64,000 nucleotides of DNA, taken from Chiloscyllium plagiosum (Eukaryota). The stretch is from NCBI RefSeq assembly GCF_004010195.1, contig NC_057753.1, positions 4,902,878 to 4,966,877 of the forward strand, given 5' to 3'. This document shows, piece by piece, positions 11,176-63,998 of this stretch. The notes under the pieces are model-generated. The model searched no databases. It was not told the origin of the DNA and saw only the letters and a list, made by a program, of their open reading frames with translations. Numbering within the stretch: the stretch's first letter is position 1; each line of letters starts with the position of its first letter. Both the position numbers and the translations under genes were made by a program.

Positions 11176-12543
11176 ATGGAGGACAAAAGTACTGTTGACA
11201 ATGAAGAGAAACTGTACATGTGTTCTGTGTGTGACCAAGGCTTCAGTCGATCGTCTGACCTGTTTGAACATAAATGCAGTTACAGTGGGGAGAAGCAATG
11301 TAGGGATTGTGAGATTGGATTCCGATCCCAGTCTGAGTTGGAAACACATCGGCGCAGTCACGTTGGAGAGGGGCTGTTGATCTGTTCAAAGTGTGGAAAG
11401 GGATTCACTTCCTCTTCCACCTTGCAGACACACCAATGCACTCACACTGACGAGGGACCATTTAAGTGTCCAGTCTGCAGCAAGTGCTTCACTAGTTCTT
11501 GGGACCTGATTTTCCACCAAAGTGTTCACACCAATGAGAGACCATTTGGGTGTTCTCACTGTGGGGCTGGCTTCAAGTCATCAGCTGACCTCACCGCACA
11601 CGAGTTAGTTCACACTGGGGAGAGGCCATTCAGCTGCTCAGAGTGTGGGAAGGGATTCACGCGCACCTCCCACTTGCTGAGGCACCAGCGAGTACACACT
11701 GGCCAGAAACCATTCACCTGCTCCCAGTGTGGGAAGGGATTTGCCCAGTCCTCCCACCTACTGAGACACCAGCGGGTTCATACTGGGGAGAGACCGTTCA
11801 CCTGCTCTGACTGTGGGAAGAGATTCGCTCAGTCGTCCACCCTGCTGGCACACCAAAGACTTCACACCGGGGAGAGACCATTCATCTGCTCATTGTGTGG
11901 GAAGGGATTCGCCCAGTCATCCAAGCTGTTGATACACCAGCGGCTTCACACTGATGAGAAACCATTTCAATGCCCAGACTGTGGGAAGTGCTATAAAAGT
12001 TCTGGGGAACTGATGTCCCACCAGCTTGTTCACACTGACGAGAGACCATTCAGGTGCTCTCACTGTGGGACTGGGTTTAAACGATCATCTGACCTTACGG
12101 TACATCAGCGAGTTCACACTGGGGAGAGGCCATTCACCTGTGCAGAGTGTGGGAAGGATTTCACTTCCTCATCGACGCTGGTGATACACCAGCGGATTCA
12201 CACTGGGGAGAGGCCGTTCATGTGCTCTGAGTGTGGGAGGGGATTCACTGAATTAGCCAGCCTGACGAAACATCGGAGTATTCACACTGGCGAGAAGCCA
12301 TTCATCTGCACTGAGTGTGGGAAGGGATTCAGTCGGTCGTCTACGCTGGTGATTCACCGGCGGGTTCACACTGGGGAAAGGCCTTACACTTGCTCTGAGT
12401 GTGGTATGACATTCACTCAATTATGCAGTCTGTTGAGACACCAGCGGGTTCACACTGGGGAGAGGCCCTTCACCTGCTCAGATTGTGGGAAGGGATTCAC
12501 TCGATCATCTGCCCTGCAGAAACATCAGAAAATTCATAACTAA
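11176..12543 (+). CDS. ZNF-A: tandem C2H2 zinc-finger protein, 455 aa, 15 canonical + 1 degenerate finger, no effector domain seen
   Basis: Uninterrupted CxxC-12-HxxxH repeats with TGERP/TDERP linkers; acceptor tcacag at about 11067; AATAAA 12668-12673. Confidence 0.93.
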
Positions 12544-13139
12544 CTTCAGTCATTGGATTTTGCTGTTAATCACATCCAAGCCTGTGTTGTGTGTCTTGGG
12601 TCCATATATTGTCAATGTTAGTGAACCCCACAGCATTAAAAGGGGTTAATATTGTGGATAAAGGTCAAATAAAGTAACTTAGCTTTAAATTCTTGCTGTG
12701 TTAAATCACTTTTAATACCTTCGATTAACTTTGGGTCCTTTTTGAAGTGCTGTCCCTCCTCCATTCTCATTATTAGCAAGAGGAATGAGGTCATATAGCT
12801 TCTTTGTCACTAAGATTGAGGCAATCCAAACAGTTGCTTCCGTCTTTTCCGCGGGCCCACCGGGACAAACTCTCTCTCAAAGCTTACTCCTCTTCCGAGA
12901 CTGCCCCCATAGTTATCTCTGTCTTCTCCCTATCTCACTTTGTGGCCTCTGGGCTGATCACTCAACTCGCCCCAGCACCCCAAGCCTTTCCCACTGCACT
13001 TTGTGAATCCCTAAAGTAATTGCTGTTGTGTCCTGAGTAAATCCATTTCAGTAACGGACATTGAAATGTTTGCTGTAAGCGCACAGGGTCCAAATCCACA
13101 AACCCAAAAGGCCCAGTTTTCTCCTGGAGTTCAGCTCGA

Positions 13140-13620
13140 ATCACGCTCTCAATGAGGATCCATTCCCATTGTTTGGAGGACCAGCCTCTCCAGTTCGGTC
13201 CTCCAGGTCCGCCCCCTGTTACATATTGGTCCGGACCTGCCGTCAATCACATGCCGTTTCCATTGTGATTTAAAACATGCGTAGTGCCGCCGAACGACCC
13301 GATTCGTAAAGCGCATGCGTGGTTGCCATCTTTCCCTTCCGCCCCCGCCCCGGCCATCGATGGTCAGTCCGTTGTATCTCAGACCTCAACAAACGGTGAG
13401 AATCGGAGGGAGCGATGAAACGAATAGTGGATGCGTGGGAGAGGCTTCGAACGTAATTTATGTCCAGCCTCAAAGCCTGAACAGGATCCTCCCCCACGTC
13501 GGCAACAAAATGGATGATGTGTCGCGGCTTGCTCGCAGTGACAGGCCCCAGGGAACGGCCGCCATCTTTGTTAGGGTCACTGGGCCACGGGTGTCCGCCA
13601 TCTTTGTAGGGTGAGGGGCA
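13140..13620 (+). promoter_or_regulatory. CpG-island promoter and first exon, probably of ZNF-B
   Basis: CpG-rich; dyad 13174-13205, GC box, ATTGG, GCGCATGCG (NRF1-like) at 13311, donor aaacg|gtgaga at about 13394, two CCGCCATCTTT (YY1-type) sites at 13559 and 13595. Confidence 0.75.
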
Positions 13621-62330: not shown

Positions 62331-63224
62331 TCCAAGAAAACAAAAGAAATTCTTCACAATATAGTATTCAAAACTTTATATCAAGCCCCTGTCTTGTTTC
62401 CAAGCAATATTCTATCACACAATTAAATTACGTTATTCTGCTTAAGTATAGGCAATACGGATATTCATCCTGTAATAGCAAGACCTTGTTTAGCTTCATT
62501 TGATACAGAAGTGCACCATGGAATTGTGATTAAAGTGAAAATGATAACCTAATGTTTTAGAGTTACCACTGTTAAGGGCGAGGAGCCTCCGTTTAACTTA
62601 CGACTAGCCATACCCAGACTTCAGAGGTTGAATAAGACAGAGATAGTATACTCCTGGCTTGTTAGCCTTGATAAAGAAATTATAACTACAGGAATATCCT
62701 TGTGCTGGTGTGTTTTAGTTGGTTTAAGTAAATGTAATTTTGCAGCAATGTGTTTAATTTTGCAATTATATAATCCTTTAGACTTAACTATACCCAAGGA
62801 AACTTCTCGAAATTAGTATTTTCTGAGTACATTATGTTCTTCTTTATTAATTTTGCCTTTAAAATATAAAAGGTAACAAACTGTTTCCAAGATTTAAACA
62901 CAGCAGAAAACAAAAGTTTAAAAAAAACCCACCAGATAATGAACAACTAAAGGAAAAGTAAATGGTCAATGATGAGCAAATGTCTGATTTAATGGGAACT
63001 TCACAAAATGACTAGGAACTGAGACATGAGCTCAAAGATATCAATCTTGGGTTCTCATTGCAAATGCCTCCCAATTCTGTAACAAATAGGCAAAGAAGAC
63101 TTCAAACCACCCCCTTAGTCATAAAGCGACAATAACTAAAGTTAATGAAGAGAGCAAACTCTTGGATAATTGACAAATACCAAAGTATGTGGTAGTGATT
63201 AACAGCAAAAGATAATCACTGCAG

Positions 63225-63998
63225 TTACTTGTGAACTCGCTGGTGTTTCTGCAGGTTGGATGACTGAGCAAATCCCTTTCCACAGTCAGAACACATGAAT
63301 GGCCTCTCCCCAGTGTGAATCCGCTGGTGCGCAGTGAGTTGAGAAGATCTTCTGAAGCAAGTTTCACACTGGGAGCACCGGAAAGGTCTCTCATCAGTGT
63401 GAACACGTTGATGGGACACCAGTTCCCGAGAACTTTTATAGCACTTCCCGCAGGCTGGACATTGAAAAGGTCTCTCGTCAGTGTGAACTAACTGGTGCCT
63501 CAGCAGGGTGGATGACTGAGCGAATCCCTTTCCGCACACAGAGCAGGCGAACGGCCTCTCTCCGCTGTGAACCGGCTGGTGCCTCAGTAAGTGGGAGGAA
63601 TGTGCGAACCCTTTCCCACATTCTGAGCAGGTGAATGGCCGCTCCCCAGTGTGAACCCGCTGATGTTGGAGCAGATCACCTGTACTTTTAAAGCATTTCT
63701 CACAGCAAGAACACCGAAATGGTTTCTGATCAGTGTGAACAAACAGGTGCGAATTGAGGCTGGTCAAACAAGTGAACCCCTTCCCACACTTGGAGCAGGT
63801 GAACGGTCTCTCCCCAGTGTGAACCCGCTGGTGCTCGGTAAGCCTGGATGACCGGGTGAATCCCTTCCCACAGTAACTGCAGCTGAAGGGCCTCTCTTCA
63901 GTGTGAAATCGCTGGTGAGCCAACAGACCCCCTGCATTTTTAAAGCTCTTCTCACAATCGGAACATTTGAAGGGTCGTGTTTCAGTGTGAACTACTTG
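63225..63998 (-). CDS. ZNF-F: tandem C2H2 zinc-finger protein, 5'-truncated by the window edge (at least 9 fingers)
   Basis: Frame stays open to the window end ([32 protein letters not shown]..); stop TAA at 63225. Confidence 0.92.

Follow-up and report, generated by a model that had tools for sequence, protein, structure and literature searches.

The window, the whole 64,000-nucleotide stretch of Chiloscyllium plagiosum DNA that was analysed, contained six C2H2 zinc finger genes. ZNF-A (11176-12543; acceptor AG ending at 11067), ZNF-B (18291-19076; acceptor end 18210) and ZNF-C (24320-25195; acceptor end 24076) were located on the forward strand. ZNF-D (30658-31896; acceptor end 32005), ZNF-E (47802-48671; acceptor end 48774) and ZNF-F (63225-63998), the last cut by the window end, were located on the reverse strand. 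An earlier note on this DNA placed an ATG before finger 1. This held for ZNF-A to ZNF-E, the ATG of ZNF-C being 24320 or 24353, but the start of ZNF-F lay beyond the window, with ACG at the position where paralogues had ATG. An in-frame stop was located nine codons 5' of the ATG in both ZNF-A and ZNF-D. CpG islands were found at 13000-13700 and 23500-24000 on the forward strand, probable promoters of ZNF-B and ZNF-C, and at 34500-35300 and 51400-52000 on the reverse strand, probable promoters of ZNF-D and ZNF-E. The island of ZNF-C contained one CGCCATNTT motif and each of the others two; we take this to be a YY1-type motif.

The architecture of ZNF-B was N1-N2-o-P1-P2-o-P1-P2-o, where o is an ordinary finger, N2 an N-terminal Trp finger (18399-18482) and P1-P2 the finger pair to which the earlier note had drawn attention (18567-18734 and 18819-18986). 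Every copy of the pair reported in that note was recovered, in all six genes. In ZNF-A, which had two pairs (11950-12117 and a diverged copy at 11446-11613), N1 was degenerate and the N-terminal finger (11278-11361) was eroded, with loss of the Trp. ZNF-C had lost N1 and carried N2 at 24350-24433 and a pair at 24938-25105. On the reverse strand, ZNF-D had two N2 fingers in tandem (31621-31788), three pairs (31452-31285, 31200-31033 and 30864-30697; span 30697-31452) and an extra P1 (30948-30865), while ZNF-E had N2 at 48480-48563 and a pair at 48228-48395. ZNF-F contained a pair (63315-63482) and an unpaired P1 (63734-63651); its N-terminal Trp finger was located about 90 bases beyond the window (G000:C44:4966966-4967016, locus L120).

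The six genes are part of a large family of elasmobranch tandem C2H2 genes whose products consist of fingers only, estimated at about 750 copies in the genome, pseudogenes included. In keeping with the earlier note's idea of a shark analogue of the KRAB-ZNF system, the family is large, clustered and chondrichthyan. In homologue searches generic long zinc finger proteins prevailed, and chondrichthyan sequences made up 11 of 237 proteins, later 14, so the taxonomic range given here is a sample; it included no family member from a chimaera. Supplementary file 2 of Wells et al. (2023, PMC10547256) lists, for five chondrichthyan species, ZNF repertoires that are very large, from 475 to 3586 ORFs, and the word 'shark' does not occur in its main text. 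Literature searches on shark and chondrichthyan zinc fingers listed no paper describing the family, and a Protein Atlas search with the pair and the N-terminal cassette returned nothing more specific than generic C2H2 clusters, at low recognition values.

In 102 of 114 ORFs, N2 was the first, second or third finger, and it was present in nine of nine further loci on contigs C44 and C45. The strict N2 pattern had 485 genome matches; among the first 100 matches listed, 57 were on C44, and many more hits were found on C44 and C45. N2 sat at the protein start and never immediately followed an ordinary, P1 or P2 finger. A few members that looked intact, ZNF-A and locus L005 among them, had an eroded N2 or none. 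Proteins of sawshark, sevengill, horn shark, catshark and stingray also contained N2. The best score of a non-chondrichthyan finger against the N2 profile was -1.5 bits (3473 fingers), compared with a family median of 40. The Trp finger of ZNF275 was considered as a homologue of N2 and was rejected, scoring -1.5 or lower.

Selection was estimated by finger class as pairwise dN/dS counts, not codon models, on finger alignments in which orthology was uncertain. In ordinary fingers, dN/dS at positions -1, 3 and 6 was 1.44 (1.28-1.62), 1.35 (1.06-1.65) and 1.23 (1.07-1.39) under three pairing schemes; the lower bounds exceeded 1, and ordinary fingers did diversify at base-contact positions, as the earlier note's account of variable fingers had proposed. 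The contact positions of N2 had a dN/dS of 0.84. On its outer face, at positions picked after conservation had been seen, the value was 0.22 (ordinary fingers 0.63).

The reading that we prefer, and to which we give about an even chance, is that of a finger-only family with variable readers, in which P1 would act as a DNA anchor or spacer and N2 as a cofactor-binding surface. Variable targets on DNA, transposons probably among them, would be read by the ordinary fingers and P2. P1 would be a fixed anchor or spacer of low specificity that brings the following fingers into register, with Lys -2 directed to the backbone, small residues at -1 and +1, and Glu or Asp at +3. N2 would offer a constant outward surface, formed by Lys and Asp of the hairpin together with Glu +5 and Arg +9, to which a shared nuclear cofactor may bind, so that the job of KRAB would be done by a finger.

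It is possible, though we doubt it, that the family has no dedicated effector and, in the manner of human ZNF146/OZF, acts by occupancy or through the generic surfaces of its fingers. The conservation of N2 would then follow from its terminal position (folding, stability of the N-terminus, nuclear import), and P1 would simply have been inherited as a DNA-binding finger whose preference is fixed. OZF likewise consists of C2H2 fingers only, has no KRAB and binds LINE-1, and its loss in HEK293 cells is described, in the part of PMC8896011 used here, as occurring without L1 up-regulation; unlike the shark family, OZF is a single conserved gene that is not expanding. A second shark family, on contig C37, had neither N2 nor the pair at the 10 of 10 loci inspected, so a constant finger is not required for finger-only proteins to persist. 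The AlphaFold model of N2-o-P1-P2 (pLDDT 90.8, pTM 0.59) was canonical and resembled DNA-bound tandem arrays (TM 0.86-0.87), a likeness that favours the reading without an effector, in a model that does not discriminate DNA from protein binding. ZFP568 in DNA complexes also has a TDEK linker, Pro at +1 and xSEL helices. Against this stands the constraint on Glu +5 and the hairpin of N2, which was far stronger than at the same sites in ordinary fingers (Glu +5: 0.10 (0.02-0.21) vs 0.68). N2 was also retained where the preceding finger had decayed: the ATG was located directly inside the N2 linker in 32 of 66 genes without N1, and a Met was often found six residues ahead of the first Cys of N2.

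According to the earlier note, the pair itself may be the built-in cofactor-binding or dimerisation module. This we consider improbable. Several results are in keeping with it: P1 was under purifying selection with normal synonymous divergence, P1 was followed by P2 in 105 of 154 P1 copies, P1-like fingers were present in catshark, sawshark, zebra shark and Mobula proteins, and the outer faces, at the same post hoc positions, were somewhat more constrained in P1 (0.46) and P2 (0.38) than in ordinary fingers. The strict P1 pattern had 173 genome matches vs 1 for the reversed control, and is therefore above chance. However, among 82 other family ORFs, fetched with a different query, 41 had no P1 and 51 had no P1-P2 pair. 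Whole intact subclades were without P1, the gene tree forced at least five gains or losses of the pair, and its copy number and position differed between genes. Nor was the pair near-invariant: in the window genes, mean protein identity between genes was 0.68 for P1, 0.69 for P2 and 0.65 for ordinary fingers. The SSGELMS helix described as fixed was exact in only 21 of 154 P1 copies, and the P2 helix was as variable as those of ordinary fingers. The expected contrast in selection between the pair and other fingers was found for P1 (0.45-0.51 at -1, 3 and 6) but not for P2 (1.06-1.10), whose contact positions evolve like those of ordinary fingers. P1 was most constrained at the helix start, with a dN/dS of 0.26 (0.16-0.37) at -2, -1, +1 and +3 vs 0.89 in ordinary fingers, DNA-facing positions being assigned from the canonical fold and not from a solved structure of these fingers. 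Because the constrained helix positions are mainly those that face DNA, P1 fits better as a fixed DNA contact or a spacer than as a cofactor-binding finger.

The third Cys of P1 was present in 102 of 154 copies (66%) but is not distinctive, as it also occurred in 216 of 2105 non-chondrichthyan fingers; it was common in frog and lungfish fingers and was found in the majority of fingers in four frog proteins. In the remaining P1 copies it was replaced by Ser, Arg and other residues, and both His ligands were intact. On these observations a role as an extra zinc ligand was rejected. TD linkers preceded 83 of 154 P1 and 85 of 141 P2 fingers, compared with 5 of 827 ordinary ones. The P1-P2 pair, present in a quarter to half of the members, is an old cassette that can be dispensed with. 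It marks the family only in part, and N2, which the earlier note does not mention, is the better candidate for a cofactor handle and the finger to which the idea of a constant module applies.

It is very unlikely that a short, unrecognised effector is encoded upstream, on an exon joined through another acceptor. FiNZ, as described in the part of PMC10547256 used here, is such a case, with 28 residues on its own upstream exon and no similarity to known domains, and the reading frame of ZNF-B and ZNF-E was open from the acceptor through to the ATG. However, of 77 paralogues in which the acceptor was conserved, 66 had in-frame stops ahead of the first constant finger, exon phases across these 77 leaders were random (25/26/26), and the -3 position of predicted starts was a purine in 34 of 35 cases and in 42 of 50. 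Pfam analysis of the six ORFs and of 126 sense-strand open frames upstream of ZNF-B to ZNF-E revealed no KRAB, SCAN or BTB, in agreement with the earlier note, and none of the 126 frames matched a Pfam effector domain. KRAB (PF01352) had no match among 65 candidates in the genome, in a search whose own control was uninformative. The same tool detected SCAN-like domains in this genome, so short domains are detectable; among 150 genome matches listed, no SCAN-like domain was located in the window. Cartilaginous fishes appear to lack KRAB. At the DNA level, the effector on an in-frame-spliced upstream coding exon that is typical of KRAB-ZNFs and FiNZ-ZNFs was not found, which supports a predicted structure for the six genes of a single coding exon that opens with a non-coding leader and has no effector exon.

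Recent duplication or gene conversion as the only source of the similarity between pairs, for which the slightly higher likeness of P1 copies within a gene (0.746) than between genes (0.718) might speak, can be dismissed as hardly credible, since synonymous divergence was equal across finger classes, the pair included (0.38-0.41), ordinary fingers showed the same excess (0.756 vs 0.716) and the motif is common to sharks and rays.

Like the KRAB-ZNFs of sarcopterygians, the shark family consists of hundreds of clustered tandem C2H2 genes with one large coding exon, base-contact residues that vary (dN/dS above 1 in this analysis) and, at the N-terminus, a candidate for a constant element. Unlike them, no KRAB was found in its genes or in the genome search, their upstream exons are predicted to be non-coding and the constant element is itself a finger. 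The cyprinid FiNZ-ZNFs (about 700 genes, concentrated on one chromosome) are described in Wells et al., in the sections used here, as a lineage-specific, positively selected parallel to the KRAB-ZNFs. The shark family shares with both systems large size, tandem clustering and, by pairwise counting, positive selection at base contacts. Unlike N2, the 28-residue FiNZ domain is not a finger and is encoded by an upstream exon of its own. TE repression by FiNZ-ZNFs has been demonstrated by knockdown, whereas the shark family is compared here, with both systems, from sequence alone, and its cofactor and TE binding are putative.

An N-terminal finger as an interaction module, the candidate role of N2, is known from CLAMP, whose finger binds MSL2 via helix positions +5, +8 and +9, as reported in the part of 10.1101/2022.02.16.480628 used here; these positions are conserved in N2. 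The CLAMP-type pattern, with outer helix and hairpin conserved and contacts free, was found in N2 on a post hoc set of sites, while P1 showed mostly the reverse. The dimerising fingers of dipteran CGx-Phi proteins are likewise N-terminal interaction modules (PMC12774644). CLAMP and CGx-Phi fingers stand off the DNA-binding cluster and occur in one or eight genes, whereas N2 is joined by a canonical linker and occurs in hundreds; the likeness is one of position and pattern. The proposed role of P1 is that of spacer fingers such as CTCF ZF8, ZFP568 ZF2 and ZBTB24 ZF4, which position their neighbours rather than read bases (PMC12264921 and PMC10484683, sections used here). Spacer fingers are described in the part of PMC12264921 used here as having no sequence signature, and several are rich in basic residues; unlike these, P1 has acidic linkers.

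Anatomically, members of the family comprise a non-coding leader, N2 as the constant finger at the N-terminus, readers that diversify and, optionally, the internal P1-P2 cassette, with N2 as a 28-residue candidate cofactor handle. We tentatively suggest that sharks and rays may run a KRAB-like surveillance of transposons in which N2 of several hundred finger-only proteins would be the corepressor module. The P1-P2 pair would be an optional DNA-register cassette, possibly related to fingers 1 and 2 of a conserved bony-vertebrate ZNF, an orthologue of which was not found in this genome in a stricter first look (best identity 55%). If N2 does bind a cofactor, it would be a third independent effector solution for variable DNA readers, after KRAB and FiNZ; if it does not, hundreds of positively selected zinc finger genes would work without any effector. 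Locus L031 is not claimed as founder of the family, the tree being unrooted and weakly supported. It was conserved across sharks and a ray and contained N2-like and P1-like fingers.

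Parsing of every finger in the window (C. plagiosum contig C44, 4902878-4966877) gave six C2H2 open frames, ZNF-A to ZNF-F. All coordinates of the finger pair described in the earlier note were recovered, as were the copies claimed for ZNF-D (three), ZNF-E (one) and ZNF-F (one); two unpaired first fingers were found besides. A strict pattern for P1, the first finger of the pair, had 173 matches genome-wide vs 1 for the reversed control, a large excess over chance that shows the motif to be real. The window and loci L001-L116 supplied a sample of 114 ORFs with 1278 fingers, classed as 154 P1, 141 P2 (second finger of the pair), 119 N2 (an N-terminal Trp finger), 37 N1 (a degenerate finger before N2), and 827 ordinary fingers. 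Five more loci with P1 matches had broken frames only and yielded no ORF. Loci L111-L115 (contigs C8 and C10) were P1-bearing family members, present as dispersed broken copies outside the clusters.

The nearly universal element of the family was N2, not the pair. N2 stood within the first three fingers of 102/114 ORFs, the other 12 being mostly fragments, gaps, eroded copies and the cut gene ZNF-F, and it headed 9/9 further loci on C44 and C45, ZNF-F just beyond the window included. Among the 1278 classed fingers, N2 never directly followed an ordinary, P1 or P2 finger. It retained Trp (90%), Pro +1 (92%), Glu +5 (91%) and Arg +9 (92%), and persisted when N1 decayed, the ATG lying inside N2's own linker in 32/66 genes lacking N1. 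The strict N2 pattern had 485 genome matches vs 0 in the control. Using the pattern sensitivities in the sample (66/119 and 70/154), the family was estimated at ~750 gene copies, a figure that counts pseudogenes and unplaced duplicates as well, with a P1-bearing share of a quarter to a half.

The pair was less constant than the earlier note stated, and was not universally present in the family. Protein identity between window genes was 0.68 for P1 and 0.69 for P2 vs 0.65 for ordinary fingers, which does not fit a near-invariant pair, and the supposedly fixed SSGELMS helix occurred exactly in 21/154 P1 copies. Across the 154 copies, the fixed residues were Lys -2 (91%), Ser -1 (81%), Ser +1 (81%) and Glu/Asp +3 (84%), with helix +2 and +6 variable. 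The third Cys did not mark the pair: it was present in 102/154 P1 but also in 216/2105 non-chondrichthyan fingers, and four frog proteins each had it in 6 or 7 of their 7-8 fingers. The acidic TD linker proved a real marker (83/154 P1, 85/141 P2, 5/827 ordinary). The pair occurred in 28/28 genes retrieved with the pair as query, but in only 31/82 ORFs fetched around matches of another query. P1 was absent from 41 of these 82; the resulting 50% for P1-bearing ORFs probably errs on the high side, because the other query itself has P1-like fingers. On a gene tree of 102 leader-plus-N2 regions (the leader being the non-coding stretch with which the coding exon begins), whose bootstrap had not settled, the P1 label needed 12 changes. 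Well-supported branches made at least 5 of these unavoidable, and there was good support for two clades without P1, one of 9 genes and one of 10.

Selection was estimated from 37 disjoint paralogue pairs picked by synonymous similarity and from 31 pairs of P1-bearing genes picked by non-coding leader. Synonymous divergence was equal in all finger classes (0.29-0.32 and 0.38-0.41, respectively), which rules out gene conversion as the cause of the likeness of the pair. At helix -1/3/6 of ordinary fingers, dN/dS under three pairing schemes was 1.44 (1.28-1.62), 1.35 (1.06-1.65) and 1.23 (1.07-1.39); the first scheme can inflate dN/dS and the other two are free of that bias. All-pairs values were below 1, with synonymous sites near-saturated. 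At the same contacts P1 was constrained (0.45-0.51), and the values for P2 were 1.06-1.10. The tightest P1 constraint was at -2/-1/+1/+3 (0.26 vs 0.89 in ordinary fingers), positions at the start of the helix that face DNA in the canonical fold; the outer face of P1 was only moderately more conserved (0.46 vs 0.63). In N2, the contact positions drifted (0.84), helix +5 was tightly held (0.10 vs 0.68), and so was the outer face (0.22 vs 0.63; sites picked post hoc).

Judged from the DNA, the family genes appear effector-less. Pfam detected neither KRAB nor SCAN nor BTB in the six window proteins, in agreement with the earlier note. The conserved acceptor lies ~100 bases upstream of the ATG; its AG was kept in 77 of 102 aligned genes, of which 66 were interrupted by an in-frame stop before N2 was reached from the acceptor; the phases in the 77 were 25/26/26. 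In the window, the leaders of ZNF-A, ZNF-C and ZNF-D held in-frame stops and those of ZNF-B and ZNF-E were open. Of 126 sense-strand frames lying between CpG island and acceptor in ZNF-B to ZNF-E, none matched an effector family; three of these frames were reverse-transcriptase fragments and three gave sub-threshold matches. When the whole genome was searched for KRAB, none of 65 candidates matched, and the built-in control was likewise without matches. From 3445 candidates genome-wide, the same tool with SCAN gave at least 150 SCAN-like matches, which were dispersed and often had stops; none of the matches listed lay in the window. SCAN is of retrotransposon capsid origin, and these matches are probably retrotransposon capsid sequence. 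A purine stood at -3 of predicted starts in 34/35 and 42/50 genes. Three loci with long, intact frames (L120, the start of ZNF-F; L058; L083) had ACG in place of their paralogues' ATG and no other upstream Met, which may reflect either a lost start or non-AUG initiation.

In the likeliest arrangement, to which we give about even chances, variable fingers would read diverse targets, P1 would set the register on DNA for those members that carry it, and N2 would present a constant protein-binding surface. The N-terminal finger of CLAMP, which binds MSL2 via helix +5, +8 and +9, offers a precedent (10.1101/2022.02.16.480628), as do dipteran dimerising fingers (PMC12774644). That a finger itself serves as effector is a tentative idea, on the doubtful side. 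The main rival, that there is no effector at all, as described for OZF (PMC8896011), is unlikely but to be taken seriously; it is favoured by a second shark family on contig C37, with neither N2 nor the pair in 10/10 inspected members. The proposal that the pair is the effector, as a built-in cofactor-binding or dimerisation module, is improbable.

P1 probably works as a DNA contact or spacer that is fixed and of low specificity, and P2 would read DNA like a normal finger. In the recognition code, small residues are poorly specific and Glu recognises thymine or 5-methylcytosine (PMC12264921). ZFP568, whose structure was solved on DNA, combines a TDEK linker with Pro +1 and xSEL helices, so none of these features rules out DNA binding. 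The AlphaFold model of N2, an ordinary finger, P1 and P2 was a canonical array, weak evidence either way.

Large ZNF repertoires of sharks have been published as numbers: 3586, 1223, 1179, 1165 and 475 ORFs for two catsharks, a skate, whale shark and chimaera (PMC10547256, supplementary file 2). KRAB depletion has been noted for cartilaginous fishes (PMC8455134). No description of this family's architecture was found in the literature covered, which largely excluded subscription journals. The shark family belongs to neither the KRAB-ZNFs nor the FiNZ-ZNFs but is like them in expansion, clustering and selection, and by analogy with both (PMC10547256) we infer that it may target TEs.

N2 was seen in proteins of Pristiophorus, Heptranchias, Heterodontus, Scyliorhinus and Hemitrygon, and P1-like fingers in those of Scyliorhinus, Pristiophorus, Stegostoma and Mobula. 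Outside chondrichthyans (3473 fingers, 323 proteins), the best N2 score was -1.5 bits vs a family median of 40, and the best P1 score 7.9 vs 30. A conserved ZNF at L031 (contig C43093, 1-1462) shared 90% identity with P0027 of zebra shark and 72% with P0032 of Mobula. It had two degenerate HxC and two P1-like fingers, plus one N2-like finger in which Tyr replaces Trp; it may be the founder of the family or one of its conserved members. P0145 and its relatives represent a strongly conserved, automatically named bony-vertebrate ZNF present in coelacanth, lungfish, bichir, caecilians, turtles, birds, lizards and koala; a genome search found no orthologue in C. plagiosum. On the P1-P2 profile its first two fingers, which resemble the pair weakly, outscored more than 99.9% of 2833 background pairs but not the best of them, and they fell far short of the shark copies; kinship with the pair is possible. 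The second family, also finger-only, lay at 0.4-6.0 Mb of C37 (L117-L119, L127-L133) and starts with ME[ED]xxFxCE, the strict start pattern having 22 matches. Decayed finger remnants apparently lie upstream of its start, and in L117, which has 32 fingers, a unit of 8 fingers is repeated.

The window has seven CGCCATNTT motifs (13560, 13596, 23811, 34585, 34621, 51452 and 51497), which we take to be YY1-type; every one lay inside a CpG island and was oriented like the downstream ZNF gene. A conserved short 3' UTR element with the core TTTTGCTGTT followed just past the stop codon/last finger in 5/6 genes (ZNF-A, ZNF-B, ZNF-C, ZNF-D and ZNF-F). Palindromic MITE-like repeats were located at 20425-20620, 21724-21886 and 42297-42487, with more partial copies within the window. 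Between the genes were many related LINE fragments and a SINE-like repeat family of ~300 bases (691-1307, 4233-7154, 27687-28974, 36057-37773, 52518-53449, 57293-59555 and others), with reverse transcriptase matches in LINE fragments at 32528-33340.
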